This document shows, one piece after another, positions 5,098 through 64,000 of a stretch of 64,000 bases of DNA. Position 1 is the stretch's first letter, and each line of letters starts with the position of its first letter. Made by a program: the position numbers and the translations under genes. The stretch is from IMG/VR virus record IMGVR_UViG_3300033069_002010; one strand, 5' to 3'. The notes under the pieces are model-generated. The model saw nothing but the letters and a program-made list of their open reading frames with translations. It made no database searches and was not told where the DNA came from. This DNA is from a virus. Taxonomy: Duplodnaviria > Heunggongvirae > Uroviricota > Caudoviricetes.

Positions 5098-5104
5098 CAT
5101 AGAC

Positions 5105-6833: not shown

Positions 6834-6835
6834 AT

Positions 6836-27881: not shown

Positions 27882-27910
27882 AAAATACCGGTTAGACCGG
27901 TATTTTTTTC
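27881..27910. terminator. bidirectional intrinsic terminator
   Basis: A5, stem TACCGGT/ACCGGTA, then T7, between convergent genes. Confidence 0.6.
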
Positions 27911-29367: not shown

Positions 29368-29419
29368 ATGGGGAACGTTGGTTTTAATGTATAAGAATAC
29401 AAAAATAGTCAAAATTGAC

Positions 29420-41492: not shown

Positions 41493-42697
41493 ACAATCAT
41501 TTTTTTGAATTCCTCAGTCTCAAGTCTCTTAATCTCCTCCCCAAGAGCCTTACCCCTAATTCCACTAGACATGAGGTCATCAGCCGAAACCGTTGGAACA
41601 TATTCGACAAACTTCCGAAACATCCTATCCCTAACAAGGTTACAGTCTAACCATTCAAGGATGACCGAATTGTCGATGTGACACTTTATTTTCCTCTTAT
41701 ACATCTCAAAAACGTTATCAGGAGTCAATCCCAAAAGAGATATCAGGAAAACCGACTTGTCAGCGACATCCCCTTCGATCTTGAATTCCTGGACCAGTTT
41801 CCTTTCCAAGATCTTCGGATCTTCCTTCCTGAAAAGGTTGGCTAATATGACCACCATATTTGACGAATCGATAAGATCTGTGTTTATCAGACATCCGGGA
41901 AAAACTACATCCCAGAGCCCCAAATCGGTGAAATACTGGAGATAACTATTGAAATCAAGAGTCTTCTTCTTGGTATACGAATGTGCCTTCTTGATCTCCT
42001 CCCAAATCCTTTCACGGGAAATGATATTCAGATCGTTCTTCCTGTCACGGATCGCGTCAAGTGATTTCGGATCCACACTGAAACTATATCTGAACGCAAA
42101 CCTGATGAGTCTCAGGATACGCAGAGGATCTTCCTTGATTCTGAGTTCGGGATCACCGAGAAAACGGGCGACACGGTTTTTTATGTCATCCATACCACCA
42201 ACCAAATCGACTATAGATTTGGTGTCCAAATCATAAAACAAAGCGTTGAAAGGTATGTCACGACGCTTAACGTCGTTTTCTATCGTGGTGAACCTCACAT
42301 CAGGATTCCTAGTCGTTCCAAGCACTGCCGAAACACCAGTCTTACCAGCTTCCGAGGCATATATATCCTCCCTGAAAGTGGCGATCTCCATACCCAAAGG
42401 CTGGTCATCGGTATATACTACAACTACCCCGAAAGCCTTACCCTGAAGGTTCGTCGAATATCCTTCAGATTTAAGGATCGAGACAACCTCATCGGGAACA
42501 GCGTCGGTGGCCAAATCAAAATCCTTAGGTTGGTCACCAATAAGGAAATCCCTGACCGAACCCCCAACCACAAAAAGTTTCTTTCCGTTTGATTGGAAAA
42601 TCCGATGGAGTTCCTTGACCGAATCGGGAATAAGATTCCACATATCAGAATCCCTTTGGTTTTCTAGAAATTTTTCGTAATTTACTAATACTTTCAT
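41489..42697 (-). CDS. cca: CCA tRNA nucleotidyltransferase
   Basis: LFVVGGSVRDFLIGDQPKDFDLATDAVPDEV head-domain signature. Start moved to the internal Met (MKVLVNYEKF); the first M at 42775 adds a hydrophobic 26-aa extension that overlaps the divergent gene. Confidence 0.85.
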   Translation of the reverse strand: MKVLVNYEKFLENQRDSDMWNLIPDSVKELHRIFQSNGKKLFVVGGSVRDFLIGDQPKDFDLATDAVPDEVVSILKSEGYSTNLQGKAFGVVVVYTDDQPLGMEIATFREDIYASEAGKTGVSAVLGTTRNPDVRFTTIENDVKRRDIPFNALFYDLDTKSIVDLVGGMDDIKNRVARFLGDPELRIKEDPLRILRLIRFAFRYSFSVDPKSLDAIRDRKNDLNIISRERIWEEIKKAHSYTKKKTLDFNSYLQYFTDLGLWDVVFPGCLINTDLIDSSNMVVILANLFRKEDPKILERKLVQEFKIEGDVADKSVFLISLLGLTPDNVFEMYKRKIKCHIDNSVILEWLDCNLVRDRMFRKFVEYVPTVSADDLMSSGIRGKALGEEIKRLETEEFKKMIV

Positions 42698-42720
42698 TGA
42701 AACAAAGTTAATCAAAATTT

Positions 42721-42736
42721 TTAATATATATATTAA
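42721..42736. promoter_or_regulatory. palindromic TTAATATATATATTAA element in a divergent promoter region
   Basis: Perfect 16-nt palindrome between divergent starts at 42697 (minus) and 42738 (plus). Confidence 0.4.
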
Positions 42737-42737
42737 T

Positions 42738-43235
42738 ATGAAAGACATTAAAAAGTTTGAGGCGTTTGGTGACATTTATCCCGAAACCAGGTTGGACTAC
42801 GACTGGAAAAGGGAATTTCTCGAAATACGGGAACTTTTCTACAACATCGAGGAAAATCTACCCGATGAGAGTTTGGTCGACTTTTCGGCTGGATGGAGGT
42901 CATCGATGAATAACCAAATGTTCCCATGTTACATAAATAAGGCGGGCGAGATTATGGGGAATGACGAAGTGATAGAAAAAACCTGCGGCACATACGCCAA
43001 CTTTCTCATAAGAATCACTATAGAACCGAGATTCAAAACCCGTAACTACTCCCCATTCAAAATCTCAAATTCCGAGTCCTTTTTCGGGGAAAACGCTCAA
43101 ATCGTGGTAGACATAATATCAAGACTCAAATACATAACAAAAGGACTGAACGAATACTCAATGGGGATAACATTCAAAGATAATCTCATCTATATATATT
43201 TTTTAAGAAACAACAACGAAAGAAAACAGATATGA
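42738..43235 (+). CDS. hypothetical protein (MKDIKKFEAF N-terminus)
   Basis: 165 aa. Confidence 0.45.
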   Translation: MKDIKKFEAFGDIYPETRLDYDWKREFLEIRELFYNIEENLPDESLVDFSAGWRSSMNNQMFPCYINKAGEIMGNDEVIEKTCGTYANFLIRITIEPRFKTRNYSPFKISNSESFFGENAQIVVDIISRLKYITKGLNEYSMGITFKDNLIYIYFLRNNNERKQI

Positions 43236-44450: not shown

Positions 44451-45023
44451 ATGAAACACCTGAAACTCTTCGAATCCAAGAACTGGGAAATAGTATTCGA
44501 CCCACACATCACAAGAATAGAATGGAACGGTCTGCCATCTTACCTACGCGACAAAACACTTATCGACTTCACACAGAGAGATATAAAACAAATAATCGGA
44601 TTTTTGGAGCATTTCGTCCCGATGTCAATGATTAAGATGCCCGAAAATACTGACAAAAAATTGGATTATGACCAAGGTAAATTTCGTGGTTCAATAGATG
44701 TGTCAACGGAAAGATCGAGCCGACCCAAAAACTATTATGACAATATCAATATATTGAAGTTAGATGATGAATACTTCATTGTATATTGCACCCACGGATA
44801 CCCAAGCGGACAACGAACCCAGGTATTCAAATGTGACCAAATCGAAGGACTGATCGAACTATTGGGGATGATGTTTGAGGGATATCCCAAAAAGGACTAT
44901 TCGAGCCAAAACTACATAACCAAAATAAAAAATCTAATCAATTCAATAGACATCGAAAAAACAGATCCAAAAAAACTGAAATCACTAGAGGAATTCCTAA
45001 TAAAATGGAAATCTGATTCATGA
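44451..45023 (+). CDS. hypothetical protein (MKHLKLFES N-terminus)
   Basis: 190 aa. Confidence 0.45.
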   Translation: MKHLKLFESKNWEIVFDPHITRIEWNGLPSYLRDKTLIDFTQRDIKQIIGFLEHFVPMSMIKMPENTDKKLDYDQGKFRGSIDVSTERSSRPKNYYDNINILKLDDEYFIVYCTHGYPSGQRTQVFKCDQIEGLIELLGMMFEGYPKKDYSSQNYITKIKNLINSIDIEKTDPKKLKSLEEFLIKWKSDS

Positions 45024-46916
45024 TAAAACCATTTCAAATTTTATCTTACCACAATCCCATATCTTATTGATTCTATTTTTCTCAACATATTTTGATTCAG
45101 TTAAGGTAGTCTTGAGTTTTGATTTTCTAAATCTTGACTTATGGACCCTCTTACCATCCACAACATACTTATAATCTGGATTTGAGAAATTAATAAGTTT
45201 AAAACCTATGGTTTCATATAATTTTCCATTAGACCAGTCCCTGTCAGCATAACTAACTATCCTAGTAGGCCCATAGTTTTTGATGAAATTTTTCAAAAGT
45301 CTAGATGCACCACCAATAACCGATGTATCTATCTTATTACAAAACCTGGACAAATTCCATTCCATATTATCCATTTTTTTCCTACCTTCGGAATGATCAA
45401 ATGTCATAATAGAAACAAGTTCCCCTCTATAGTACAATCCTATTTTAACCACAGAATTCACAAATCCTTGTATGTGATTCTCATCAAGAAAACACCGAAC
45501 TATTTTTGGATCATTTATAACCCTAACTTCACATTTTCTAGCATGAATCATGGTATTAGTAATACCAATCCAATTTCTGATTTGACTCTTAATAATATTT
45601 GTCCTATGCGACCAGTCGTCTTCCCATATATTTATAATATGAATTCCTTTGTCCAAAAAATATTTTCTTTTATTTAAGTGATAATTTCTATCTCTGTATT
45701 TTTCTGAATGCCAGTATAGTCCATTAAACTCAAATCCTATTTTCAAATCGGGAAGATAAATATCTATTTCCAACCCATCTCTATATGATCCAATAACCTC
45801 TCCTTGATATATTGATTTTATATAATTCAGCACTTGTTTTTCCTTTATTGAATATAACTCTCCGACGGGATTACAAATGACACATAAGGGCACTCTACCT
45901 CTTATCCTATTAAAATATAGATCAGTTGATATTTCAAAATTGTGTGGTTTATCTAAATCACATTTGAATAAAGAAACACTATTACCAACATAAGTAATAT
46001 ATGAATCGTGTTTAGTTATTGAAAATTTAATTCTTATTTCATCAGACTGGGAAACATGTTCAACATTATATTTATCAAGATTTGTTTTCCTTACTTTATC
46101 AAGTATAATAGGTGATTGTAATGGTGATTCTACACCATATTTTTCAATATTTGTCTTTTTTATCTGTTCTCTAATCTCGGGTGACTTAAAAACATTATCA
46201 TAGCCATACCTTTCTATATTTGTGTTTCTAATGATCTGCTTACAATCTTCACTTTTTAAGTTTGAGTCAACACCCCACTTTTCTATACTTGATTCTCTTC
46301 TTTTTTTCTGAAATTCTTCACTTTGTGAAACATATTCTACACCATATTTTTTTAAATTTGTCTCTTTGGACCTCCGAATAAAGTCATCTGTGCCAATATA
46401 ATACTCACTACCATATTTCAACATGTTAGTCTCAGTTACCTTAACCTTGAAATCATCGGTTTTCGCATAACTGTCTAATCCATATTTTTCCAAACAAGTA
46501 TTCCTTATTTTTGACTTGACTACATCACTATACATTTGATGTTCAACCCCATGATTCCTGATTAACGTTTGTTTGGACTTCTCTTTAACAGTATTTAATT
46601 GAAATGGATTATCCACACCATATTTGGATTGACATACATCCTTTATTTTCTGATTGGAACATTGATACCTACTACATGATGATTTATTTATATCTTTTAT
46701 AGATAAATTATATCGTTTATAAGGTTGTTTAAATTCCAATCCACAATAATCACATTTTACATCAACAACTATCTTGGATCCAATAGTGATATCTTTGATA
46801 TTAACTGTTATAATATCACCTATTTTTGGATTATCTAAATCATATTTATTTCTTAATTTAAGACAGTTCCTTTTAGTTAAGACTATTTCTACTTTTTCGG
46901 TTAATAGCATAAACAA
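45018..46916 (-). CDS. modular homing endonuclease, KYGV-repeat family with Vsr-like nuclease module
   Basis: Nine or more KYGV(D/E)xxxQ repeats, then LEIDIYLPDLKIGFEFNGLYWHSE...IWEDDW and ARKCEVRVI...NHIQGF, paralogous to 8322..9965. AT-rich. Confidence 0.7.
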   Translation of the reverse strand: MFMLLTEKVEIVLTKRNCLKLRNKYDLDNPKIGDIITVNIKDITIGSKIVVDVKCDYCGLEFKQPYKRYNLSIKDINKSSCSRYQCSNQKIKDVCQSKYGVDNPFQLNTVKEKSKQTLIRNHGVEHQMYSDVVKSKIRNTCLEKYGLDSYAKTDDFKVKVTETNMLKYGSEYYIGTDDFIRRSKETNLKKYGVEYVSQSEEFQKKRRESSIEKWGVDSNLKSEDCKQIIRNTNIERYGYDNVFKSPEIREQIKKTNIEKYGVESPLQSPIILDKVRKTNLDKYNVEHVSQSDEIRIKFSITKHDSYITYVGNSVSLFKCDLDKPHNFEISTDLYFNRIRGRVPLCVICNPVGELYSIKEKQVLNYIKSIYQGEVIGSYRDGLEIDIYLPDLKIGFEFNGLYWHSEKYRDRNYHLNKRKYFLDKGIHIINIWEDDWSHRTNIIKSQIRNWIGITNTMIHARKCEVRVINDPKIVRCFLDENHIQGFVNSVVKIGLYYRGELVSIMTFDHSEGRKKMDNMEWNLSRFCNKIDTSVIGGASRLLKNFIKNYGPTRIVSYADRDWSNGKLYETIGFKLINFSNPDYKYVVDGKRVHKSRFRKSKLKTTLTESKYVEKNRINKIWDCGKIKFEMVLS

Positions 46917-51846: not shown

Positions 51847-52507
51847 CTATTTCTATATATCCCTCCTTGAACAGACACCAGTTGACTCCGGGAAGGGATT
51901 TTATCTCACTCTCGATCATGAACATCTCGGAAACCTTGAGATTCGAGGAATGTGGTATGATCAGGGTCTTGTCGACACCGGTAGGAAAACCCGAACCTTC
52001 GTACAGAGGAACGATCTCGGTCTTTATCTCAACGGTTTTGACACCGTATTTTTCAAGAATCCCACGGACGTTTTCAACAAGGGTCTTTTCAACCACGGCG
52101 TCTCCGGCGGATTCGTTGATTCTTTCGACAACGGTCTCGAGACTTTCGAAATAAGCCGAATCCATTTTCTTTGCCTTCAAGATATCATAAATATCCAAGG
52201 ATACCCTTTCAAGAGAAGAAACCCTTTCTATCCAATCGGATTCCTCGTTAAGTGGATTAGTCGAATATGACCATCTTATCGGATTGGTAATAAGATCCCG
52301 TTTATCGATCCTGACAACGGTTTCCCTTCTCTGATGACCGATACCCTCATTAAAGAGTCCATTTAGAGTTATTTCAACGAAATACCGGTTTCCGATTGAT
52401 TTCTCAGTAATGTAAACATTCTCGATAAGAGACTTTAGATCGTAGTCGATTTTGTTGATTGACGTTTTTATTTCATGTAAAACCATGTTATCAATATTTT
52501 TTTCCAT
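51827..52507 (-). CDS. hypothetical protein
   Basis: 226 aa. Confidence 0.45.
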   Translation of the reverse strand: MEKNIDNMVLHEIKTSINKIDYDLKSLIENVYITEKSIGNRYFVEITLNGLFNEGIGHQRRETVVRIDKRDLITNPIRWSYSTNPLNEESDWIERVSSLERVSLDIYDILKAKKMDSAYFESLETVVERINESAGDAVVEKTLVENVRGILEKYGVKTVEIKTEIVPLYEGSGFPTGVDKTLIIPHSSNLKVSEMFMIESEIKSLPGVNWCLFKEGYIEIDVTYED

Positions 52508-52528
52508 TTTATATATTAAATTTTATAT

Positions 52529-52565
52529 ATAAAAAAACTCGGATTATCTCCGAGTTTTGTTTTTC
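52529..52565 (-). terminator. intrinsic terminator
   Basis: A7, stem ACTCGGA/TCCGAGT with loop TTATC, then TTTGTTTTT. Confidence 0.55.
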
Positions 52566-53182
52566 CTGACAGCTTCTTCTTCCTGAAGGAGAAGTTTATC
52601 CAAATCCATAAAAATAGACTTTCTTCGTTCCTCCTCACCGAGTTTCATTCGCCTCTCGTTTTCGCCATCAAAAGCAGTTATAACACTTTCTGACAATTTC
52701 TGACCTATCCTTATCTCATATAAACAACTCTTAGTCGAATCAACATCCATTATCGTCATCAGATAATCAACAGAATTAATCGGATTAAGAATAATAACTA
52801 CATTATCCTTTTCAATCTGACGTATCTGGTTCGAAATCGAACTTGTCAGGCTTGTATTTGGATCTTTCAGACAAAGTTTCCAAAGTCGAATTCCCTTTTC
52901 CTGTAACTCAGTTACCTGTTTTTCTTCATCCGAATATGTAAGTCGAGTATCCATTTTGGAGAAAAATCCATTGGTTCTGATATACGTCTTCAAAACAAAA
53001 AATTTGAAGTGTGATAAGGTTCTGAATTTTGACCACACCAACACACTCGAGAGTATAAGGGTGATAAGGTTCAATATCCAGAAATTCATACTAGGTAACC
53101 AGTCCAAAATACCGAGTAGTATTAGAAAACCTGACATGACCAAAGCGATCATAGTCACGAAAACAAATAAGATAAATCTCAT
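52544..53182 (-). CDS. hypothetical membrane protein
   Basis: 212 aa; two or three N-terminal TM segments. Confidence 0.45.
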   Translation of the reverse strand: MRFILFVFVTMIALVMSGFLILLGILDWLPSMNFWILNLITLILSSVLVWSKFRTLSHFKFFVLKTYIRTNGFFSKMDTRLTYSDEEKQVTELQEKGIRLWKLCLKDPNTSLTSSISNQIRQIEKDNVVIILNPINSVDYLMTIMDVDSTKSCLYEIRIGQKLSESVITAFDGENERRMKLGEEERRKSIFMDLDKLLLQEEEAVRKNKTRR

Positions 53183-53186
53183 ATTT

Positions 53187-55214
53187 TTAATCCAACATTA
53201 AATTTTGGTGACCAAGTTTGTTTACTGTATCCTTCAAAAGCTGAAGATCCTTCAGACTACAATGTGTCTGGTATTCAACCGAAGGTTTTATTCCTGCCTT
53301 ACACAGGAAATCAACCACCTGCTCTACATCCCAATGTAAGTCGGTCTTCTCATCCCATATGTCAAACGTGGCCTCCTCGAGCTCCTCGAAACAGTCACCC
53401 AAAGCCTTTATCTCCGGGAATCTGCTCTTCAGCAGATGTTCCAGGTGCTGGTCGTAGGCGATGTTCTTTCCATAGGAAAGAGGATTCACACAAAAGACTA
53501 TTTTCGGGTCTCCGAGCTCGTTGGTGGCATCTTCCTCTTCGTGGATGGCGAAAATGAAATCGTCATCCTTTATGTCACCATACATCTCCTCCATGTCCTC
53601 ATCCCACTCATCATTGTCATCCCAAACAAGATTTCCATCCTTGTCAACCGAAGCCTCGTTGAATTTCTTGATTCGATCTTCTGTTTTCCTTTCGACATGG
53701 GATTCGAAAGAATTGGAACCACACATCTTGTCGAATTCGCTTTCCTGACCGAATCCGAGCTTAATCATCTTCTGGACAATCTCTCCCCAAGACAACTCAC
53801 CGACGTATTTCAATTTCGCTCTCATCACAGCAACATCAGTAACTCCCATCGCCACCATGGCCGCATCGGAAGGATCAATAGGTTCGAGTCGTATGTTCAT
53901 TCCCGCAAGTTGCTTCCTGACCGTCTCAGGCAGAGACTCATAATCCATAATCTCGGTAAGAACACCATCCTGATTCTGACCGATGCGAATCTGATACTCA
54001 CCACTTTCAAATAGTTTCATAAAAGCTTCAGCGTTTATGCCTTTGATTTTCTTGACTTTTGAAAGGATAAGTTCCGAAATTTCGGGTTCTAGATCAACCT
54101 TTTCATTCATTCTTTCAGAAACATTGAAATAATATCCGTTGAAAGGTTCAACAGGTTGAAGGGTTTCAAGTCGGTCCTCAAGAAGTTTGAGTTCTGACTT
54201 GGCTTCCTCAACTTTTTTCTGAGACTGAACCACATCAATCTCAAATTTTGAGACGTCTTTTACCTTCTGGGAAATACGGGACTTGATCTCATCAATCTTT
54301 TCTTGCTTCATCTTAGCAAACGAAGCCTCGAGAGTAGATTGGTAGTTCGGAACCTCTTCAACAACCTCAATTTCAATATCATCCTCATCTATCACCTCAA
54401 CAGATTCCTCATCAAACATCGACATCAGGATATCGAGTTTGGAACCCAGATCTTCCTTGATTTCAGGTGTTTCGACTTCGTCGAAAATGGATGCGAGCTT
54501 GTCTATCGGTCGCTGGTATTCGACCGAAAGGAAAAGAGGAATGGAATATCCCTTGATATGCTGGACAGACTCGAATTCGAGTTCTCGGACACACCACCTC
54601 TGACGATACGAGACAAGTGTCTTGTCGGATATCAGTTCCAACAGACGTCCCCGCTGTTCCGAAGTGGTCATATTCGAACCAACCTCTTCAAAATTGACGG
54701 TTCCCTCATCACATATAGTAAGCTTGAATTTGATTCCGTCATAGTCAAGTCCCGAAAGTTGTTTTCCCTCGATGTAAGCTTCCTTGGATAGGAAATTGAC
54801 ATGGTTGGAACCACCGATGAACTCGATAAACTTGTCCTTGGGTGAAAACTCACCGATTACAAGAGGTTTCAGATCGTCTGACTCTGATTTGGGGTGGAGA
54901 AGAAGACCCCCACCGTCGGGATCGTTGAAATCGGGATCGGTGAAATCGAAGAAATAACCTTCTACGTCAATCCCATCCGACAAAACTCGGACAGTACCTT
55001 TGAAAAGTCGGTTTTCCAAAGAATAGTCATCATCCTTATCATGGGTGATGAGGACGATAGCCTCATCACCGTCTTTCAGGTTCTTGGCCTCATCTAGGGT
55101 AAACAGTTTTCCGTTGTGTAGGGCGTCATTATAATCGGTATAACCGAAAGGAAATGTCATTATGCTCATTTGTAGGTTTTTGTCAAAAGTAAATAAAATT
55201 GATGGACAATCCAA
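53187..55214 (-). CDS. large acidic hypothetical protein
   Basis: 675 aa; coiled-coil centre; Asp/Glu-rich. Confidence 0.5.
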   Translation of the reverse strand: MDCPSILFTFDKNLQMSIMTFPFGYTDYNDALHNGKLFTLDEAKNLKDGDEAIVLITHDKDDDYSLENRLFKGTVRVLSDGIDVEGYFFDFTDPDFNDPDGGGLLLHPKSESDDLKPLVIGEFSPKDKFIEFIGGSNHVNFLSKEAYIEGKQLSGLDYDGIKFKLTICDEGTVNFEEVGSNMTTSEQRGRLLELISDKTLVSYRQRWCVRELEFESVQHIKGYSIPLFLSVEYQRPIDKLASIFDEVETPEIKEDLGSKLDILMSMFDEESVEVIDEDDIEIEVVEEVPNYQSTLEASFAKMKQEKIDEIKSRISQKVKDVSKFEIDVVQSQKKVEEAKSELKLLEDRLETLQPVEPFNGYYFNVSERMNEKVDLEPEISELILSKVKKIKGINAEAFMKLFESGEYQIRIGQNQDGVLTEIMDYESLPETVRKQLAGMNIRLEPIDPSDAAMVAMGVTDVAVMRAKLKYVGELSWGEIVQKMIKLGFGQESEFDKMCGSNSFESHVERKTEDRIKKFNEASVDKDGNLVWDDNDEWDEDMEEMYGDIKDDDFIFAIHEEEDATNELGDPKIVFCVNPLSYGKNIAYDQHLEHLLKSRFPEIKALGDCFEELEEATFDIWDEKTDLHWDVEQVVDFLCKAGIKPSVEYQTHCSLKDLQLLKDTVNKLGHQNLMLD

Positions 55215-55217
55215 ATC

Positions 55218-55625
55218 TTATCCGATAAGATCCGAAATGTTCATGTCCCTCCTCAACAGAACCGCTTCCTCATCGGTAGTGGCTTTGGGAATTTTGTTAC
55301 CGACCGAATCGAAAATAGTCCCACTGTCTATGCACTTATCACCGCTTTCCTCAGCCAAGGACATCAGATCCGGATCCTCTGTCTTCTCATCCATCTGAAG
55401 GTCATACAGAAGCTGAAGTTCAGACTTGTACGGCATTATGTTTGATACCACAAAAGGACTGGTTTCCGAGAAATTCTCGGTGGCCAGTAACAGCAAAAGC
55501 TTCCTTTCCTTTGAGGAAAGGAGGTCCATCCGATCCGTCACCTTGATGACGTTGAAAAGACGGAACAGTTCGATAAACTCGTCGGAAACGACAAGTTTCT
55601 TTTCATCAGTATTTATTTCTTCCAT
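55218..55625 (-). CDS. hypothetical protein
   Basis: 135 aa. Confidence 0.4.
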   Translation of the reverse strand: MEEINTDEKKLVVSDEFIELFRLFNVIKVTDRMDLLSSKERKLLLLLATENFSETSPFVVSNIMPYKSELQLLYDLQMDEKTEDPDLMSLAEESGDKCIDSGTIFDSVGNKIPKATTDEEAVLLRRDMNISDLIG

Positions 55626-55639
55626 ATTTTTCTTGGTTT

Positions 55640-55936
55640 TTAATCAATAAGTTTCGATAGGACATAATCCCTATATTCCTGTTTGGGGACTGAACCGAGT
55701 TCGAACGCCCTTCGGAAGAAGATCTCAAAAAGATGTTCATGACCTAGTTCCTTGGCGGCGATGGCCCTATTTATGGCCTTCCACTCATCTGTGATTTTTC
55801 TAGCCTGAATAAGAGCTAAGGATTTCTGTTTTTCGATATCATCGGTTTTTCCCATGATATCGTTTATACGGGAATAATTCTTCATATATTCCTGTTTGGA
55901 CTGTCCGTTGTACACCGATTTTTGACCCATATACAT
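55640..55936 (-). CDS. hypothetical protein
   Basis: 98 aa. Confidence 0.4.
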   Translation of the reverse strand: MYMGQKSVYNGQSKQEYMKNYSRINDIMGKTDDIEKQKSLALIQARKITDEWKAINRAIAAKELGHEHLFEIFFRRAFELGSVPKQEYRDYVLSKLID

Positions 55937-55937
55937 T

Positions 55938-56327
55938 TTATTTGAAAATCGCTTTAAGTTGGTTGGTGATAGAACGAACCTGTTTCAGGTTCTCATACGT
56001 GTTCATCCATGTACCGATGGGAATAGTTACCGTAAATATGACTTTGGTGAAATACGATTCCGAGAAAAACCTAGAATCACAAGGCTCAAGTATTTCAGAA
56101 CATGTCGGCTCTGTAGTCAGAAGACCACATACCCATAGACCACGACGGTGTTCTAGAAGAACATAAGGATGGTTGAAAACCGGATGCATCAGAACATCCC
56201 CTTTCTTAAATTCGGCCGGACCCCTTTTTCCGGAATAGGTCCCTGGAAGAGACTGGATCCACCCGATAAGCTGTTCGTGACTGTATTTACCACTTTTAAC
56301 CTTTTCAATCAAGTTAGACTTATCCAT
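55938..56327 (-). CDS. hypothetical protein
   Basis: 129 aa. Confidence 0.4.
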   Translation of the reverse strand: MDKSNLIEKVKSGKYSHEQLIGWIQSLPGTYSGKRGPAEFKKGDVLMHPVFNHPYVLLEHRRGLWVCGLLTTEPTCSEILEPCDSRFFSESYFTKVIFTVTIPIGTWMNTYENLKQVRSITNQLKAIFK

Positions 56328-56629
56328 TGTAAGATTGTTGTTAAGATAGTTATAATATTATCATGATGTTACATGAAATTCAAAAAACCAATAAATCGGT
56401 ATAGCCGCGATTCTGTTCTATGAATACATTTATCTATTGCCTCAACCCGTCCTCACAGGGAAACCGACACCCTCGGACTGTTTGAGTTGCAGCTTCTTTG
56501 GTCAAACAAGCTTTCAGTCGATGACCTACTAACTCTTCCAAATTTGGTTTTGCTGTCGCGAACTTCCTCCAGTATCTCTACCGGCGTATTCTCCCGTGTT
56601 TATTGTCCCACAAAGATAGTAAACATTTT

Positions 56630-57109
56630 TCACCCCACCAAATTTCCCAATCTCAGGTCTCTCAGGCAGGTTAGGATAAGCTTTTTCTGATAATGGGATT
56701 CCATGTATGTTTCAAGATAATCCTGCATATTTGAATGAAGACCACCTTCGGGATTTGGGTTTATCGAGATCACCGGACCCAAAAACCTCTCGAAATTACC
56801 AACTATAAGGTCGAAACTTAAATTGATGGACAGTGAAAGATATTTCAATTGGGGTATTATCAAATCGGTTTCGCCCCCCCATATTTTTCTGTATTCGGAA
56901 AGAAACATCTTGAAATCAGCCTCATCCGGTCCCATCAGGTCATCGGTCACGATAGGAGGAAAGCCAATATACCTGGTGTATTTCTCAAGGATGTAATCGG
57001 GGGAGTTCACTTGGAGATGGGCATGGGTAACCCAGGGAGAAAGAAGAAAAGTGAATTTCAGAAGGTTTATGATTTTTTCCAAATTGGGATCCCTATCAAA
57101 ATTGTCCAT
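56630..57109 (-). CDS. hypothetical protein
   Basis: 159 aa. Confidence 0.45.
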   Translation of the reverse strand: MDNFDRDPNLEKIINLLKFTFLLSPWVTHAHLQVNSPDYILEKYTRYIGFPPIVTDDLMGPDEADFKMFLSEYRKIWGGETDLIIPQLKYLSLSINLSFDLIVGNFERFLGPVISINPNPEGGLHSNMQDYLETYMESHYQKKLILTCLRDLRLGNLVG

Positions 57110-57218
57110 GGGACAAAGTTATGAAATAAGAAATGAATTTTAAAAAGGGATCACAAGACCCCTTTTTTTACCGACATTACGGACCTCGGTAGACCAAAGT
57201 CCTAACCACATGGATGGA

Positions 57219-57587
57219 TTAGGATAAGACTTCATTTTCAATCTTGATCTCAATAACAAGCTTGTCTTTCGACATCATGTCCTTTAGTTTGATCATCTTG
57301 AACATTTTGAACAAACTCAATCCACTATATTCAGGATTGGTAGCGATAACGTTTTTTAGGAACCTAAAATCTGAAATCCTTTTTCTAGCAACCTCATTAT
57401 GAGTATAAACATACCTGAATCTAGAATCGACAACTGTTGACTTTAAAACCCTTTCCTGAAAACGGTCATGACTAGCCTGAAGATTATCAATAATCATATC
57501 AATAGTATTACCACGACTTATCATCTGAATAATCCGATTGTCTATATGAGTGAAAAGAAGATCTGTTTTGTTAAAAGTTTCCATCAA
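57219..57587 (-). CDS. hypothetical protein
   Basis: 122 aa. Confidence 0.4.
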   Translation of the reverse strand: MMETFNKTDLLFTHIDNRIIQMISRGNTIDMIIDNLQASHDRFQERVLKSTVVDSRFRYVYTHNEVARKRISDFRFLKNVIATNPEYSGLSLFKMFKMIKLKDMMSKDKLVIEIKIENEVLS

Positions 57588-57990
57588 ATATATTATTTAT
57601 TTTGTAATCCCTAGACCATGTTTTATCTGTCATGGTAAAGGAAATTATGAATCTTGTCAGCCTTATTGATGACCCTGGTTGAAATGGATTTTCAACATCT
57701 ATTGTTTTTGGTTCGGAAACCGACCAGAAGCTGCCTCCCAAAAAGTCCGTTCTTATATTTTTTTTCTTTATCCTCAGATGGTTGGACAGTTTGGAATAGA
57801 ATTCAGTCTTGGGAATGAGAATATTAAAAATTTGATCTGTCTGATTCCAATTGTACCGGATTTTGATGTCGATCCAATCAAACGCATCGGAACACCCGTC
57901 ATGAAACATGGGTATACGGTACGAAACCATAATTTTCCGATGACTCAATTTTGTCACCGTCAGATCGTCAGATTCGAAAATTCTATCCAT
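57571..57990 (-). CDS. hypothetical protein
   Basis: The track ORF starts at 58080 and overlaps the rhomboid 3' end by 98 nt; the internal Met (MDRIFESDD, at 57990) is the more likely start. Confidence 0.35.
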   Translation of the reverse strand: MDRIFESDDLTVTKLSHRKIMVSYRIPMFHDGCSDAFDWIDIKIRYNWNQTDQIFNILIPKTEFYSKLSNHLRIKKKNIRTDFLGGSFWSVSEPKTIDVENPFQPGSSIRLTRFIISFTMTDKTWSRDYKINNIFDGNF

Positions 57991-58573
57991 TCCTGTTTCC
58001 AAAAACCTTTCTCTCAAGGAAATACGCCGACATTCCTGCCATTGCCCCACCAAAGTGGGCCCAGTGACCGATATTGTCATTTACTGCAAAGATACAGCAA
58101 ATAAATTCTATTATGAAAAGAAATCCAACAAGATATTTGGATTTTATCCCGAACGGAAGAAACATTATCGAAAGTTCGGCATTCGGATTCAAAAAAGCGA
58201 ACATCATCACGATTCCCCATACGGCTCCCGACGCCCCCACACACGGACCCTGTGTGAACAGGGACTGCAGTATGCCTCCGACCAGTCCGAAAAGAAGATA
58301 GTAGAAATAGAACTTCTTGGTGGAATTTATGAAACTCTCAACAAAAGGACCCAGGGATATCAGAGCCAACATGTTTCCCAAAAGGTGGAAAATGCCCCCA
58401 TGGACGAATTGCGAGGTTATCAGCTGATACCACCCGAAATTCGGGCTGGTGTAGTTCCAGCAGGCCAAAAACCAAGTCAGGTCGAGTTTAAATAAACTGA
58501 GAACGGACATGAATAGAAAAACTGAAACGTTGATGTAAAATAGGGTCTTGATGCCCGTTGATGATTGAAACAT
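57983..58573 (-). CDS. rhomboid-family intramembrane serine protease
   Basis: Six TM segments; catalytic GASGAVWG (GxSG) and the later TM His in AHFGGAMAG. Confidence 0.75.
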   Translation of the reverse strand: MFQSSTGIKTLFYINVSVFLFMSVLSLFKLDLTWFLACWNYTSPNFGWYQLITSQFVHGGIFHLLGNMLALISLGPFVESFINSTKKFYFYYLLFGLVGGILQSLFTQGPCVGASGAVWGIVMMFAFLNPNAELSIMFLPFGIKSKYLVGFLFIIEFICCIFAVNDNIGHWAHFGGAMAGMSAYFLERKVFGNRNG

Positions 58574-58940
58574 GATATTTATTTTAGAATTTTCTTAAAA
58601 GGTATCTCTGAAGCCAGTCGGAAAGTCCCTTGCTTACCTTAGCAGCTGCCCTCAATTTCCTGATCTCGAGGAACAGACCAATACTATCTGATTCCGATTT
58701 ACCTATATGGGTTTCTGTTATACTCATCGAATTGGTGGATTCGCGCCACTAGAATTACCTTAATGTACCTTAACCGCTTGATTTTGGAAAAAAGTTCCAG
58801 ACTATCTGATTCTTGACACATAATCGACTATGAAAATATTTGACGATTCCCTCCATGCCTTTCGACTCGAAATCAGTTTCCTGTATATGTTTGACATCTT
58901 TCTCTTCTGTTTTATTATCGAGAAAATCCGAACGGTATCC

Positions 58941-58987
58941 ATAAAAACAAAAATAGGATTTTCCCCGATTAAAAAAAAATCCTATTC
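58941..58987 (-). terminator. intrinsic terminator
   Basis: 11-bp stem AATAGGATTTT/AAAATCCTATT followed on the minus strand by TTTGTTTTT; overlaps the stop of 58982..59278. Confidence 0.5.
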
Positions 58988-59278
58988 GTAATCCCGATAA
59001 TCCACCGAATCCGTGGGATACCCTGACAGGTAATCGCTGTAGTTCAGGCTCTGTTCCAATTTCGCGGACAGGTAGTCCGAAAATCTCCTCATCAGGATAT
59101 TTCTTCTTTCCTCCCTTATCAGGGCAAAAAGTTCCATCTCAGAGACTTGGTCTTTCCTCACTGCTATTGAACGGTATTTTTTCACCGACAATCGTTGTTT
59201 CAGTAACCCCCTTGTAGAATTTCGTCTTTCCACATCTCTTACAATTTTTCTTGAGAAGCTCGTCATAGCGACCCACAC
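58982..59278 (-). CDS. hypothetical protein
   Basis: 98 aa. Confidence 0.35.
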   Translation of the reverse strand: MWVAMTSFSRKIVRDVERRNSTRGLLKQRLSVKKYRSIAVRKDQVSEMELFALIREERRNILMRRFSDYLSAKLEQSLNYSDYLSGYPTDSVDYRDYE

Positions 59279-59338
59279 TCTTGACGTATTTCCATCTTGT
59301 CCATCTGTGACCCGTAAAAAGACAGATTATCCATTTCA

Positions 59339-60568
59339 TCATTTAATATTCTTTTTTAATTCGTTCAAATCGTCGAGATACATATCTTTCGGTTCTACCA
59401 AAGACAGGGCCTCCATATCGGATTTTTTTGTCCTGTAATCATCCTTCAGCTTTTCGAAGAGATCTTTGGTTAGAGACCAAATTGGCATCTTTAAAAGATA
59501 ATCAAAAGAATCGTCTATCTGTTCAAGACCGATTTTGACCATCTCATAAACTAGAATGTCTTTCTGTTTATTCTTGACCTCAATCTTCCCATCTAGAATG
59601 TATTTGATAAATCGGCCCTTATTGGCTAGAACTTTCAGTTCAGATCTCATTTTTTCTAGTAGGAAATCTTTACGTTTTATATAATATTTCAATCTGAAAG
59701 TTACGAAATATTCTATTATTTCAGAATCAGATTCAAAAATTTTTAGCTTTCCAGATTCGTCAAGGGTGGAGAAATTTTCGGTCTCTGACTCCTCAAGCTT
59801 CAGAATCTTGATAAGTTTTTCTTCTGTCAAATTTGACAGTGATTCCCTAGTGAATTTTATCGTATAGTCTATATTGTCTCTACAGTTGTCGTCGTATCCG
59901 ACTATGACCTTGTCCTCCAAAAGCTTATCAAGTATAGTCTCATACTTCTCATAAGTCATTGATGGTGGAAGTTCAGTTACCCTTACCGTTGAGGTGTTCG
60001 CCACCTGTACCTTTCCCTGGATAATCCACCTCTTAGGATTCTCGGGATCTCTTATATAATCACCGTTGAAAAAACGGTTATAAGGCTTTATGTCCCCGAT
60101 TTTATTCCCGTTGATTACCTGCTGGCATGCCGTGATTATGTCAGATGGGTTCCGGTTTAGAATGTTGGAAGCGAAACCGACCGCGATGCCAGACGATCCA
60201 TTTATCAGGATCATCGGTATGATAGGAAGAAAGAAATGGGGTTCAATTTCCTGTCCCTCCTCCTGCTTATAGGTTAGAAGATCGAAATCCTTGTAGAGAA
60301 GACGAAAATTTTTGTTGAGTTTGGTCCCGATATACCTGGCCGCTCCGGGCTCAGGGGACCGGAGGGATCCGAACTGACCGACCTCATCCAAAAGACTCAT
60401 GTTGTTCTTGAAGCTTTGGGCCATGGTGACAATCGCGTTTTCCAAAGAACTGTTATGGGTAACTATCATGGAGTCTCCAACAACGAAATTATGGTATTTA
60501 TCAACCGTAATATCATAAAATTTCCTTGGTTTATCCAATTTGTTTACCCTTATTGATTTTATTCTCAT
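59339..60568 (-). CDS. topoisomerase II large subunit (gp52/GyrA-like), C-terminal fragment preceded by a C-intein
   Basis: The first 39 aa (MRIKSIRVNKLDKPRKFYDITVDKYHNFVVGDSMIVTHN) carry intein blocks F and G. The extein resumes SSLENAIVTMAQSF...LLDEVGQFGS...GAARYIGTKL, i.e. the type IIA active-site Tyr region. Confidence 0.85.
   Translation of the reverse strand: MRIKSIRVNKLDKPRKFYDITVDKYHNFVVGDSMIVTHNSSLENAIVTMAQSFKNNMSLLDEVGQFGSLRSPEPGAARYIGTKLNKNFRLLYKDFDLLTYKQEEGQEIEPHFFLPIIPMILINGSSGIAVGFASNILNRNPSDIITACQQVINGNKIGDIKPYNRFFNGDYIRDPENPKRWIIQGKVQVANTSTVRVTELPPSMTYEKYETILDKLLEDKVIVGYDDNCRDNIDYTIKFTRESLSNLTEEKLIKILKLEESETENFSTLDESGKLKIFESDSEIIEYFVTFRLKYYIKRKDFLLEKMRSELKVLANKGRFIKYILDGKIEVKNKQKDILVYEMVKIGLEQIDDSFDYLLKMPIWSLTKDLFEKLKDDYRTKKSDMEALSLVEPKDMYLDDLNELKKNIK
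60452..60568 (-). mobile_element. split intein, C-terminal half (Int-C, 39 aa)
   Basis: Blocks F (FYDITVDKYHNFVV) and G (IVTHN|S). It begins with its own Met in a separate ORF. Confidence 0.75.
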
Positions 60569-61478
60569 ATTTTTTAAGTATAAATTTTTTACAAGATTCT
60601 ATATTATTCCTAACATCTTCATCACTCCAAATTTCCAATATTTCAAACCCATTTGAAATGGCTAAGTTATTCTTAATTCTCCGTCTGTTGATATTCTCTG
60701 AAGCAGTTTCATTCACAAAGGGATTCGACCATACATCATTTTCATTTTTTGCATGAAATGCAACCCCATGAAACTCAATTATTATTTTAAGGGATTTTAT
60801 AGTGAAATCATAGAAAAATATATTTGTTCCACCTTTTAGGAAAAATTCATTTTTGTCTTGATATCCAAAAAATATATCATCTGACAATAGACCAATATGA
60901 ATGCAAAAATTAAAAACATCTAGAAAAACAACCAGTGACTCCTTAGATGCTTTACCAAAAAGGTGAAGACGAGGATCATATCCCAAGTTATTCATAAAAA
61001 TATTATGTATTTCCCACCATTTTTTTTTGAAAAAAAGAGGATCAATGACCATTTTATACCTCATCTTATCCACTTTAGATATTTTAATGGTTTCTGATTT
61101 CGATATATGATCAACACCATATTTCAACATAAGAGTCTTTTTTGATTTTTCCTTAACGGACTCTCTCTGAAAAACATTTATTATTCCCTCATTTTCAATA
61201 AGTCTATCCTCCCATTTTTTTCTAGAAGATGATTCCCCACAAAAATTATGTGTCGAACCACATGATTTAAGATATGATCTCATCTTCAACTCTTCAGCAC
61301 ATTCGGAAGAACAGGTTTGATTTTGTCTGTGATAAAACTCCAAACCACAGTTTTTACATTTTTTATATTTTCTACAATCCGTACAGAAATTACCATATTT
61401 TTCTGGATCTTTCAGTATATATTTCTTACTTATTGAATCTATATTGAAACTCGATCCACATCTTTTACATATACACAT
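60531..61478 (-). CDS. free-standing Vsr-like homing endonuclease lying between the split-intein halves
   Basis: CxxC...CxxC N-terminus; one KYGVDHISKSE repeat; FFYDFTIKSLKIIIEFHGVAFHA...ILEIWSDEDV (Vsr/DUF559-like). Its frame differs from both intein halves; own TATATATA element upstream; AT-rich. Confidence 0.7.
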   Translation of the reverse strand: MCICKRCGSSFNIDSISKKYILKDPEKYGNFCTDCRKYKKCKNCGLEFYHRQNQTCSSECAEELKMRSYLKSCGSTHNFCGESSSRKKWEDRLIENEGIINVFQRESVKEKSKKTLMLKYGVDHISKSETIKISKVDKMRYKMVIDPLFFKKKWWEIHNIFMNNLGYDPRLHLFGKASKESLVVFLDVFNFCIHIGLLSDDIFFGYQDKNEFFLKGGTNIFFYDFTIKSLKIIIEFHGVAFHAKNENDVWSNPFVNETASENINRRRIKNNLAISNGFEILEIWSDEDVRNNIESCKKFILKKYENKINKGKQIG

Positions 61479-61513
61479 TATTTATTTTTATGGTATATAT
61501 AAAATGACCAAAA

Positions 61514-62062
61514 TCACTTTTTATCATCATGGGATAAAATATCCATGATGATATCATCCTCTTTTAGGTTTTCAGCGGTTACCCATCCCCTTTCCGTTAG
61601 GAAAGGGTGATTTGAAGTGCATTTGAATATTTCGCCATTTTCCATTTCAATCTCGAACTCTATGTCAGTGATTTGACCTACCCTTGGAGTATGGCCCTTT
61701 CCAGCGACAAATTGTTTAGTTTCCTCATCAAATGAGATCAAATCCAACTCAATATCTGGAAAATTTTCAAACCATTCAATAATTTTAATAGACGACCCAT
61801 CTATTAATGAGATTTTTGTTTCGGGATCCAAACAGTTTCCGTGGTGGTAGAAAGCGTCCGAAGCCACCTTACCGGCCAACTGGAAAACCTTGAGAGGCTT
61901 CTCGGAACCGTTTTTCCAAATGTCGGAACAGATGTGTATTATTTTTCTCTGTGTCGGCTTGAACCCGTCGATGACCGACGGAATCGCCCTTCCCTCGACC
62001 ACATACATGGCGAAATCCTTGTACTCCGTCGACAGGAATTCGGTTATTGTTTTCTTGTTCAT
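61514..62062 (-). CDS. topoisomerase II large subunit (gp52/GyrA-like), N-terminal fragment fused to an N-intein
   Basis: DGFKPTQRKII...LKVFQLAGKVASDAFYHHG(N) is the conserved type IIA N-terminal region, up to the YHHGE motif. Confidence 0.85.
   Translation of the reverse strand: MNKKTITEFLSTEYKDFAMYVVEGRAIPSVIDGFKPTQRKIIHICSDIWKNGSEKPLKVFQLAGKVASDAFYHHGNCLDPETKISLIDGSSIKIIEWFENFPDIELDLISFDEETKQFVAGKGHTPRVGQITDIEFEIEMENGEIFKCTSNHPFLTERGWVTAENLKEDDIIMDILSHDDKK
61517..61834 (-). mobile_element. split intein, N-terminal half (Int-N, 105 aa)
   Basis: Begins with Cys immediately after YHHGN; block A CLDPETKISLIDGSSIKIIE; block B KCTSNHPFLTERGWVTAENLKEDDII; terminated by TGA at 61514-61516. Confidence 0.75.
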
Positions 62063-62155
62063 GATTTTTATAGTTACTATGTTTCCTTTGTTTTCTATTT
62101 ATATTAGTTTCCTGGTTCCCCTACGAAGAACCGATTCTGAATATATACGGGAATC

Positions 62156-62428
62156 ATGGACACAGAGAACTTTCCCGAATCGTTGGGATTCTTATCCGAC
62201 GGATACGAATGGACCAAGCCGCTTGACGGCGGATACATGGTCATAACAAAACGCCTACTCGATTCGAATCTCTATTCTTTTTCATTCGTCGACGAGGACG
62301 ACGACGAGCTTTTCATCGTGATGAAGGGAACCCCCGAGGACTGCGTGGAACAGATGCGGATATTCGAGAGGGACGAGAAAATAAGAAGGATTCTCGACTT
62401 TGACCAAAAAACCAATATAAAAGGATAA
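62156..62428 (+). CDS. hypothetical acidic protein
   Basis: 90 aa; ATATATAC element upstream; its stop abuts the topoisomerase gene start. Confidence 0.4.
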   Translation: MDTENFPESLGFLSDGYEWTKPLDGGYMVITKRLLDSNLYSFSFVDEDDDELFIVMKGTPEDCVEQMRIFERDEKIRRILDFDQKTNIKG

Positions 62429-62429
62429 T

Positions 62430-64000
62430 ATGAAGAAAATTGAGGAAAAATACAAGGTATTGGACCACATATCCCACGTCCTGCTGAGACCGGGAACATA
62501 TGTCGGGTCCAACAAGCCCCACACCGGAACAAAATGGATCTTCGATTCCGAATCCAAAAGGATGAAGAAGAGGGAAATAACCTACATACCTTCGTTTCTG
62601 AAGATATTCGACGAGATTGTCACCAACTCGTTCGACGAACACAAACGAACCCCGTCACTCAACAAGATAGACGTCGGGGTAAATCCGGAAACCGGAGAGA
62701 TATCGGTAAGGGACAACGGGGGAATACCGGTGGTCATACACAAGGAACACAACCAATACGTTCCCGAGGTGATATTCGGGAACCTCATGTCGGGGGCCAA
62801 CTACGACGACTCCGAGGAAAGGATAGTCGCGGGGACCAACGGATTGGGAGCCAAGCTTACCATAATATTCTCCAAGCAGTTCCAGATATCCACCTGCGAC
62901 GGAAAGACAAGCTTCCACCAGACCTATTCCAACAACATGAGGGACAGGACCCAACCGGTCATCAAGAAGCAGAAGACCAACCACACCGAAATAAGATACG
63001 TTCCCGATTTCGAGAAATTCGAAATGACCGGACTGGACGACGACCACTTCCAGATGATACGGAAAAGGGTGATCGATCTGGCTGGGTGCAACCCGACCTG
63101 CAGGGTCACGTTCAACGGAGATCCGATCGACGTAAAATCATTCGAGGATTATGTCAGACTGTATCGGGAAGACTATTTCTTCGAATCCAACAAGGAAAGG
63201 ACCTGGTCCCTGGCTGTGGCCCCGTCGGACGAAGGATTCCAGCAGGTCAGTTTCGTCAACTCCACCGACACGTATGACGGCGGAACCCATGTCGACTACA
63301 TACTCAACCAAATCATTTCGGAACTACGGGATTTCTTCCAAAAGAAACACAAGACCGACATCAGGCCTTCCGAAATAAAAAACCACATAACTCTGTTTCT
63401 TAACTCGACTGTGGTCAACCCTTCCTTCTCATCACAGACAAAGGAAAAGCTGATAACCGAGACAAAGGACTACGGTTACAAGTACGAGGTGACCGACAAG
63501 ATGATCAAGTCGATACTGAAATCGGAAATAGTCGAGTCGATACTAGATTGGATACAGCAGAAGAAAAGCGCCGACGAGAACAAGCTGGCCAGGGAACTCA
63601 ACAAGAACGCCGGAAAACTGAAGGTCGACAAGCTGATCGACGCCAAGGGAAAGGAAAGGTGGAAATGCTCGCTCGCCATTTTTGAGGGAGATTGTTTACA
63701 TGAAGACACACTTGTAAGAGTCATTCGGGATGGGGATGTAATAGATACAAAAATAAAAAACATAACAACCGAAGATCTAGTCATTACTCATAGTAATTCA
63801 ATATCCAATGTTTATGCTATAACAAAAAAAATAAAGAAAAAAGCAGTTATAAAAATTAAGGATGAGGAAATAACATGTAGCCATGAACATAAATGGTTCG
63901 TTTATGACAGGGAAAAAAATGAATTCTATTTCGAAACAACAAAAAATATAAATAAATCGAAACATAAATTAGTTAAGAACTATTTAGCATTTATGGATTC
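62430..64000 (+). CDS. topoisomerase II ATPase/TOPRIM subunit (gp39/gp60, GyrB-like), partial, interrupted by an intein
   Basis: GHKL ATPase motifs (FDEIVTNSFDE, RDNGGIPV, GTNGLGAKLT), the QTKEKL motif and TOPRIM EGD, followed at 63693 by CLHEDTLVRVIRDG (intein block A) where SA is expected. The ORF runs off the window end. The ORF track missed this gene because it has no stop inside the window. Confidence 0.85.
   Translation, partial: MKKIEEKYKVLDHISHVLLRPGTYVGSNKPHTGTKWIFDSESKRMKKREITYIPSFLKIFDEIVTNSFDEHKRTPSLNKIDVGVNPETGEISVRDNGGIPVVIHKEHNQYVPEVIFGNLMSGANYDDSEERIVAGTNGLGAKLTIIFSKQFQISTCDGKTSFHQTYSNNMRDRTQPVIKKQKTNHTEIRYVPDFEKFEMTGLDDDHFQMIRKRVIDLAGCNPTCRVTFNGDPIDVKSFEDYVRLYREDYFFESNKERTWSLAVAPSDEGFQQVSFVNSTDTYDGGTHVDYILNQIISELRDFFQKKHKTDIRPSEIKNHITLFLNSTVVNPSFSSQTKEKLITETKDYGYKYEVTDKMIKSILKSEIVESILDWIQQKKSADENKLARELNKNAGKLKVDKLIDAKGKERWKCSLAIFEGDCLHEDTLVRVIRDGDVIDTKIKNITTEDLVITHSNSISNVYAITKKIKKKAVIKIKDEEITCSHEHKWFVYDREKNEFYFETTKNINKSKHKLVKNYLAFMD
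63693..64000 (+). mobile_element. intein inserted at the TOPRIM EGD|SA site (partial)
   Basis: Block A CLHEDTLV...; a later TCSHEHKWFV is block-B-like. Markedly more AT-rich than the flanking extein. Confidence 0.65.

Follow-up and report, generated by a model that had tools for sequence, protein, structure and literature searches.

What interrupts the catalytic motif of a topoisomerase II gene in a tailed phage, and is the interrupting element one contiguous piece or two separate ones? The question arises at the end of a 64,000-nucleotide stretch of the IMG/VR virus record IMGVR_UViG_3300033069_002010 (Caudoviricetes), which was analysed at its full length and is referred to below as the window. 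A first-pass annotation, made from the letters alone, had placed an intein in the GyrB-like gene that starts there at 62430 (plus strand), between the EGD and SA residues of the TOPRIM domain (EGD/SA; the slash marks an insertion point or junction), and had left open whether it is contiguous or split. Our analysis indicates that the window very probably holds the first piece of a large-subunit gene of topoisomerase II in which naturally split inteins break up the coding sequence, with protein products that would be joined by trans-splicing. Two parts of this gene lie in the window (IntN and IntC denote the N- and C-terminal halves of a split intein):

62430..63692, plus strand: N-extein of the topoisomerase II large subunit (T4 gp39-type), amino acids (aa) 1-421, covering GHKL ATPase, transducer and TOPRIM as far as its catalytic-Glu motif E-G-D
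63693..64000, plus strand: first 102 codons of IntN1, the predicted N-terminal half of a naturally split intein (Cys1 = 63693-63695)

The ATG of the large subunit lies at 62430 and the reading frame stays open up to the window end. Residues 2-421 match PHROG 543 ("DNA topoisomerase II large subunit") with an expect value (E) of 7e-120, and the N-extein matches Pfam DNA_gyraseB (E 2e-24), in agreement with the GyrB-like assignment. For the GHKL ATPase reported at first pass, the match to Pfam HATPase_c is weak (23.8 bits, cut-off 26.4). We identified the features of a gp39-type subunit: GHKL ATPase, transducer, TOPRIM (Toprim and TOPRIM_C in the spliced product) and a gp52-type partner gene in head-to-head orientation. 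In the TOPRIM domain, the E-G-D motif provides the catalytic Glu and the D-x-D motif the metal-binding Asp residues. The sequence SSQTKEKL is present, and the N-extein ends ...CSLAIFEGD at 63692. As had been read before, a Cys codon (TGT, 63693-63695) follows in place of SA, and then LHEDTLVRVIRDG; the intein thus begins CLHEDTLV... and has a block-B-like motif, (C)SHEH, at about 63876-63890. The abrupt switch to AT-rich sequence at 63693 was also borne out. The guanine-plus-cytosine content (GC) is 0.489 in 62430-63692 and 0.27 in 63693-64000, and GC at third codon positions (GC3) is 0.69 in the N-extein and 0.265 in the intein.

The C-terminal junction of the element sits beyond the window end. 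It was taken from a 15,690-bp contig (L010, Logan SRR32380198), found by exact-protein look-up of the small open reading frame (ORF) upstream of the large subunit in the window. L010 has 2 mismatches to window positions 52156-64000 in 11,845 bp (99.98% identity) and extends 2,092 bp beyond the window end. No match was returned when 62000-64000 was compared with GenBank phages by megablast, or when strings from the junction and the window end were sought as exact patterns in viral contigs and JGI metagenome contigs. Window-equivalent coordinates (L010 coordinate plus 52155) of the gene are:

62430-64181, plus strand: piece 1, N-extein of 421 aa and IntN1 of 162 aa, with stop codon TAG at 64179-64181; GC 0.49 and 0.28, respectively
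64182-64205: spacer 1, 24 nt, GC 0.08
64206-64835: piece 2, IntC1 of 45 aa, middle extein of 73 aa (SASSAF...VILYTDAD) and IntN2 of 91 aa (CLEENTTILT...), with stop codon TAA; GC 0.30, 0.52 and 0.27, respectively
64836-64850: spacer 2, 15 nt, GC 0.27
64851-65384: piece 3, IntC2 of 55 aa (...DIILSHN) and C-extein of 122 aa (CDGNAISALL...); GC 0.29 and 0.47, respectively

On L010 the exteins are GC-rich and all intein segments AT-rich. The sequence past 64000 contains the IntC blocks and the resumption of TOPRIM (...LISHN/SASSAF). Joined in silico, the three exteins give a protein of 616 aa that regains Pfam Toprim (35.8 bits, cut-off 23.1) as well as TOPRIM_C.

Sequence comparisons identify the insert at EGD/SA (intein 1) as an intein, as the first-pass annotation had held. 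Inteinless orthologues (P0059, P0083 and P0099) read an uninterrupted FEGDSASSAF exactly at the insertion point. In a protein search, more than 100 homologues of 571-586 aa align end to end with the N-extein plus the 162-aa insert and then stop, and a few of 616-624 aa lack the insert and have FEGDSASSAF unbroken. Partner ORFs start MIVENFLELVD... and run to SFLLSNGLISHN/SASSAF. In-silico splicing of P0002 and P0186 (a relative) yields 616 aa, identical at 615 of 616 positions to the natural inteinless P0059. All 12 aligned IntN/IntC pairs have C1, S63, H66, a block-F Asp, H206 and N207 in common, and all 24 full-length piece-1 sequences share Cys1 and the Ser and His of block B. Every IntC junction inspected reads HN and then Ser (e.g., ...GLISHN/SASSAF in L010 and L001); for the 19 pairs that were built, IntC had been delimited with a pattern that itself demanded Ser+1 (Ser followed by Ala or Pro). 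Purifying selection on IntN1 (ratio of nonsynonymous to synonymous divergence, dN/dS, 0.08 for L010 vs L002) is close to that on the extein (0.066 vs L002).

Profile and structure searches point to the Hint fold, and we consider intein 1 to have the characters of this fold. The 102 intein residues in the window alone do not match Pfam Intein_splicing (PF14890) significantly (E 0.056). Joined IntN1 and IntC1 match this family with E 1.4e-5, and some family members carry a precomputed PF14890 match. Of the sequences in the PDB, intein 1 matches best the gp41-1 intein, itself naturally split (E 0.008 from a single sequence, 0.0018 from a profile), and S63-H-E-H66 of IntN1 aligns with CSEEH of the gp41-1 intein. 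The predicted structure of the whole of piece 1 has a mean local confidence (pLDDT) of 71.8, with moderate confidence in the intein portion. No homing endonuclease domain is embedded in the intein; a stop codon follows after 162 aa.

Intein 1 in the window's genome is, from the sequence of L010, split: 162 intein residues are followed by TAG, and the 45-aa IntC is encoded by a separate ORF that begins with its own ATG 24 nt on. This settles the choice that the first-pass annotation had left. Separate ORFs for IntN1 and IntC1 are also present in L001, L002, L004 and L011. A profile search of 1.84 billion cluster representatives returned 91 at E<=1e-10. Among those near full length, nearly all have IntN1 at the C-terminal end, in proteins of about 570-636 aa. 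No contiguous version of intein 1 was found in this search or in a word-indexed search of 5.8 billion sequences.

A second split intein was identified on L010 at DAD/CDG, 73 residues after the first (12405-12860, window-equivalent 64560-65015). It has Cys1 and Cys+1, and its joined halves (IntN2 of 91 aa and IntC2 of 55 aa) score 40.7 bits, above the Pfam gathering score of 35.8. Both TOPRIM signature motifs are thus interrupted by predicted split inteins, at E-G-D/S-A and at D-x-D/x-D-G. A search recovered about 30 homologous proteins of about 209 aa that consist of IntC1, middle extein and IntN2, and so the three-piece form is widespread. In one relative's protein (P0134, 306 aa), IntC1, middle extein and IntN2 are preceded, in the same frame, by the last ~95 aa of an endonuclease ORF. 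This fusion is what is left of a decayed endonuclease or else an extension introduced by gene calling.

IntN1 is unusually constructed. It has 162 aa, and IntN2, which is 35% identical to it, ends at the equivalent of IntN1 residue 95. Residues 114-157 of IntN1 align with residues 52-94 (hhalign probability 94%, E 1.3e-7), which is an internal duplication of ~45 aa. The extra module (60 aa, residues 103-162; window-equivalent 63999-64178, L010 11844-12023) is a tandem repeat of the block-B segment. Within it H129, F141 and N158 are invariant, and it is confidently predicted as a beta-meander in models of piece 1 and of IntN1 alone. A few members of the family in the cluster-representative search have a shorter IntN (about 95 aa) that lacks the duplicated module.

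Related genomes carry the large-subunit gene in several states. The gene has no intein in L006, L007 and P0059. Intein-1 halves are adjacent, without an endonuclease gene, in L002, L003 and L010, and are separated by an ORF of 437 aa in L001, 438 aa in L004 and 373 aa in L011. The last of these is LR756500.1, a published, unannotated 462-kb uncultured huge phage in which both subunits are fractured at the same two sites (2720-7900) and the residue that precedes intein 1 is Leu (EGL/C), not Asp. In L002 IntN ends at a TGA, out of frame with the IntC ORF. In L001, IntN is followed by two consecutive TAGs and then by the 437-aa ORF, again in another frame. In L008 (JGI Ga0265293_10003931, 3797-8587) the pieces are dispersed: the middle piece is not beside the N-terminal piece, and a 466-aa N6_Mtase/Eco57I-like (methyltransferase-like) gene lies between the middle and C-terminal pieces. 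This contig is in an NCBI bin named "Candidatus Muirbacterium halophilum", and looks like phage, not bacterial DNA. Just upstream, the same contig has a TnpB-like fragment and a pair of neighbouring IMPDH ORFs (259 and 223 aa), which may be another gene that is broken.

The final 24-45 nt of the L001 endonuclease ORF make up the spacers of L010 and L002. Thus, the endonuclease-free form is a deletion derivative. No endonuclease gene is present at intein 1 in the window's genome, as read in L010, where a 24-nt 3' remnant stays. L001 is 97% identical to the window across the large-subunit gene, yet has an endonuclease gene in intein 1, no intein 2 and no intein in the gp52-type gene. Between the window lineage and L001, synonymous divergence (dS) is 0.033 in IntN1 and 0.137 in the extein. 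In L004, a low-GC relative, the GC3 of extein and intein are alike (about 0.20). The low dS of IntN1 and the matching GC3 of L004 suggest that intein 1 came into the window's lineage from a low-GC relative, and this, with a GC3 of 0.265 in a gene of 0.69, supports the horizontal acquisition proposed at first pass. Elsewhere in the same comparison, L001 (5292-6090) has an extra ~800 bp with a 255-aa plus-strand ORF at window position 57125-57141, in otherwise collinear sequence.

The ORFs that separate the intein halves encode putative homing endonucleases. The 437-aa ORF of L001 and a 315-aa ORF of the window (60531-61478) resemble each other over a 125-aa domain at the C terminus (46% identity, E 8e-30), which has the motifs FYDF...IIIEYNG..FH...LEIWSD. 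The match to DUF559 (E 0.03-0.14) is suggestive, not significant. Comparison with the PDB gave no significant match for the endonuclease family; I-Bth0305I (3r3p) is the second match (E 0.09, not significant). A further match of the intervening ORFs, PHROG 22677, is a family without assigned function. The N-terminal 235 aa of the L011 ORF are 37% identical to those of the L001 ORF (E 2e-36), and the C-terminal domain differs; it appears HNH-like by eye and has no Pfam match. This suggests swapping of nuclease domains on a common DNA-binding module. Two large free-standing ORFs in the window, at 8322-9965 (plus strand) and 45018-46916 (minus strand), match PHROG 3339 ("homing endonuclease") at E 1e-120, and also Pfam DUF7487 plus REase_MTES_1575 or Mom-like domains. 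A related 612-aa ORF lies between both topoisomerase genes in L004, and the window genome is rich in such elements. A group I intron that bears the endonuclease was considered and rejected, as no Rfam match was found at E<=1 in L001 11200-13400 and the spacers, of 24-46 nt, are too short.

The gp52-type partner gene, transcribed divergently, is also fractured. The first-pass annotation had placed an intein in this subunit as well; we find it at YHHGN/, split by a free-standing endonuclease gene. The features of this side of the locus, including the region between the two genes, are:

62156..62428, plus strand: small conserved ORF, 90 aa, directly upstream of the large subunit, with its stop one base before the large-subunit ATG
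62063..62155, no strand: intergenic region, 93 nt, from which the operons of the two topoisomerase subunits diverge; from ORF coordinates
61835..62062, minus strand: gp52-type N-extein, 76 aa (...AFYHHGN); Pfam DNA_topoisoIV E 1e-12, PHROG 551; edge of collinearity with inteinless L001
61514..61834, minus strand: gp52-type IntN, 106 aa (CLDPETKISL...), stop codon included; Pfam Intein_splicing E 3e-6
60531..61478, minus strand: free-standing putative homing endonuclease, 315 aa; PHROG 3339 and 559 (homing / HNH) E about 1e-7, weak DUF7487 and DUF559
60452..60568, minus strand: gp52-type IntC, 39 aa (...SMIVTHN); Pfam Intein_splicing E 2.7e-6 over aa 6-39
59339..60451, minus strand: gp52-type C-extein, 370 aa (SSLENAIV...); Pfam DNA_topoisoIV E 1e-70

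The head-to-head arrangement with a small ORF, also described at first pass, is therefore present, with the gp52-like start at 62062 on the minus strand and a 93-nt gap. The small ORF has an orthologue at the same place in L001, L002, L006 and L010, and matches neither Pfam nor PHROG. The 315-aa endonuclease ORF overlaps the gp52-type IntC ORF by 38 nt. In L001 the gp52-type gene is uninterrupted (8293-9633; 446 aa, YHHGN/MSLENA), and the window has a 1,392-bp insertion in this gene relative to L001, at 60443-61834. In L002 (3934-5694) and L004 the intein is a contiguous mini-intein of 140 aa, in proteins of 586-588 aa. The gp52 site therefore occurs among the relatives in empty, contiguous-intein and endonuclease-split states. 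IntC1 is strongly acidic (net charge -10), and the gp52 pair has the opposite polarity (IntN -15, IntC +4), which would favour correct pairing.

We propose that piece 1, N-extein and IntN1, is translated as its own protein and that IntN1 and IntC1 would then associate to form a Hint domain. A Cys1 thioester, attack by Ser+1 and cyclisation of the terminal Asn would produce the EGD-SA peptide bond, and IntN2 and IntC2 would likewise produce the DAD-CDG bond. The expected product is the 616-aa subunit with an intact TOPRIM domain that has both its metal site, DxD, and its catalytic Glu. As long as no splicing has taken place, these two motifs are on different polypeptides, and thus the enzyme should be inactive at that stage. 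The element would be selfish in origin, with relatives that keep a free-standing homing-endonuclease gene between the halves; since only the last 24 nt of that gene are kept, the copy in the window's genome has lost the endonuclease. A more far-reaching version, which we regard as doubtful, holds that five polypeptides form topoisomerase II by three mutually orthogonal, domesticated trans-splicing reactions. In that case the extra IntN1 module would act as an intramolecular cap or pairing determinant (for solubility, correct partner or ligation order), and activity would arise only once all pieces are made.

Several observations count against trans-splicing of this gene. Joined intein 1 is under the Pfam Intein_splicing gathering score (25.4 vs 35.8 bits), and its Foldseek matches are individually not significant (E of at least 0.09). 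On L010 (10275-13229) all three pieces share a frame and only one stop codon separates each piece from the next (TAG, then TAA), which leaves some room for read-through in this particular genome. Everything past 64000 is from L010, not from the window itself. We know of no precedent for the duplicated module of IntN1. Finally, splicing, association of the halves and endonuclease activity are inferred from sequence.

One alternative, which we consider improbable, is that the halves do not splice and are merely non-covalent docking modules that hold the topoisomerase fragments together. There is precedent for non-covalent assembly of the products of endonuclease-split phage genes (Crona et al., 2011; PMC3045599), and the extra IntN1 module could be an interaction domain. 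However, diverged sequences show no variation at any residue that splicing requires (Cys1, Ser and His of block B, Asp of block F and the terminal His-Asn), the junctions inspected are HN-Ser, and the dN/dS of IntN1 is low (0.08, as above). Moreover, the break falls within EGDSA, and a retained Hint domain (~200 aa) would occupy the DNA-cleavage site.

Very unlikely is a contiguous cis-splicing intein, possibly with a nested homing-endonuclease domain, in which the stop is bypassed by read-through or recoding. Stop-codon recoding occurs in some huge phages, and the L010 pieces, all in frame 0, are joined by TAG and 8 sense codons and then by TAA and 5 sense codons. The stop codon and the change of frame in L002, the successive TAGs and intervening out-of-frame ORF in L001 and the non-adjacent pieces in L008 do not fit this explanation. 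Nor do the C-terminal position of IntN1 in nearly all near-full-length representatives, none of which looked contiguous, and the use of all three stop codons by the window (TAA, TGA and TAG end 33, 18 and 10 of 61 long ORFs, respectively). The shared frame of the three L010 pieces is probably a coincidence, as L002 differs. A decaying pseudogene or assembly artefact, to which the AT-rich region and the seemingly broken gene might point, can be dismissed almost entirely, given that over 100 distinct proteins from assemblies made independently (JGI, ENA, Logan and NCBI) show this architecture, and given purifying selection, intact exteins and the same-site architecture of the published phage LR756500.1.

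Naturally split inteins with trans-splicing, the reading that we prefer, have known counterparts. Fractured genes, in which a free-standing homing-endonuclease gene lies between the halves of a split intein, were described for gp41-1, NrdJ-1, IMPDH-1, NrdA-2 and others (Dassa et al., 2009; PMC2677866). As in those genes, IntN and IntC are here on separate adjacent ORFs in a phage-type gene of DNA metabolism, and the gp41-1 intein is the closest solved sequence to intein 1. The endonuclease ORF lies between the halves in L001, L004 and L011 and is gone in others, as in their gp41-7; the window's copy of intein 1 is at this "endonuclease lost" stage. The C-terminal domain of the endonuclease may, as there, be Vsr-like (I-Bth0305I match not significant, E 0.09). 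Differences are that the host gene, a T4-type topoisomerase II with sites EGD/SA and DAD/x, is not among theirs, and that one protein has two split inteins and its partner subunit a third. IntN1 is also longer, at 162 aa with its internal duplication; the IntNs of their fractured genes are reportedly about 88-105 aa. Contiguous, fractured, endonuclease-lost and dispersed stages all occur among related genomes here, and this allelic series matches the stepwise fractured-gene model of Dassa et al. (2009), a paper in which "topoisomerase" and "gyrase" have 0 occurrences.

The split DnaE intein of cyanobacteria (Ssp/Npu) is similar in its Cys1, an IntC of about 36-45 aa, an essential DNA-replication enzyme as host and conservation across a clade, and the separate loci of the L008 pieces resemble those of dnaE-n and dnaE-c. 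Unlike DnaE, the topoisomerase inteins belong to a phage, not a cell, their halves lie side by side in the window's genome, intein 1 has Ser and not Cys at +1, IntN is much longer, and endonuclease-bearing alleles still circulate. Inteins favour conserved catalytic motifs, and 33 GyrB inteins, from bacteria and archaea, have been tabulated (Novikova et al., 2016; PMC4760082). GyrB is the homologous subunit of a type IIA topoisomerase; however, its tabulated inteins are contiguous, cis-splicing and in cellular gyrB, with no detectable close sequence relationship to those described here.

T4 has its topoisomerase II large subunit divided between genes 39 and 60 by a mobA endonuclease cassette, and gp39 and gp60 assemble unligated. 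Similarly, nrdA of phage Aeh1 is split by mobE, and the fragments assemble without ligation (Crona et al., 2011; PMC3045599). In all these cases (for T4, in the same enzyme) insertion of a free-standing homing endonuclease breaks a gene whose fragments must reassemble. The T4 and Aeh1 genes do so without intein or ligation, whereas the break described here is flanked by intein halves whose catalytic residues are intact. In the literature searched, we found no description of a split intein in phage topoisomerase II, no paper that pairs "EGDSA" with "intein", and no natural three-piece trans-splicing protein, which was present there only as an engineered design.

The gene content of the window, including several free-standing endonucleases, fits a huge tailed phage. 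Other genes identified are:

16400-18046: baseplate wedge homologue
27892-29499: class I Glu/Gln-type aminoacyl-tRNA synthetase
31034-32911: SPFH/Band-7 protein
41489-42775: CCA-adding enzyme / poly(A) polymerase family protein
57983-58573: rhomboid-like membrane protein, whose L001 orthologue matches Pfam Rhomboid

In GenBank the nearest records are huge-phage genomes of 635-642 kb that lack annotation, with 64% identity over the N-extein. Four family members (P0105, P0067, P0080 and P0120) are listed on contigs of 566-770 kb that may be misassemblies or cellular DNA. To our knowledge, 770 kb exceeds any known phage genome.

With these results phage topoisomerase II joins the hosts of natural split inteins and fractured genes, with insertions at both TOPRIM catalytic motifs. 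One protein is apparently built from three pieces by two different split inteins, a rare arrangement of an already known kind. The Cys1/Ser+1 and Cys1/Cys+1 pairs, together with the oppositely charged gp52 pair, are candidate orthogonal ligation tools. Annotation of huge phages that calls these ORFs separately would overlook a single enzyme. Every stage from contiguous intein to dispersed split intein is present in close relatives, and genomes with 97% identity differ in some of these stages, so that the dynamics of these elements may be studied directly.

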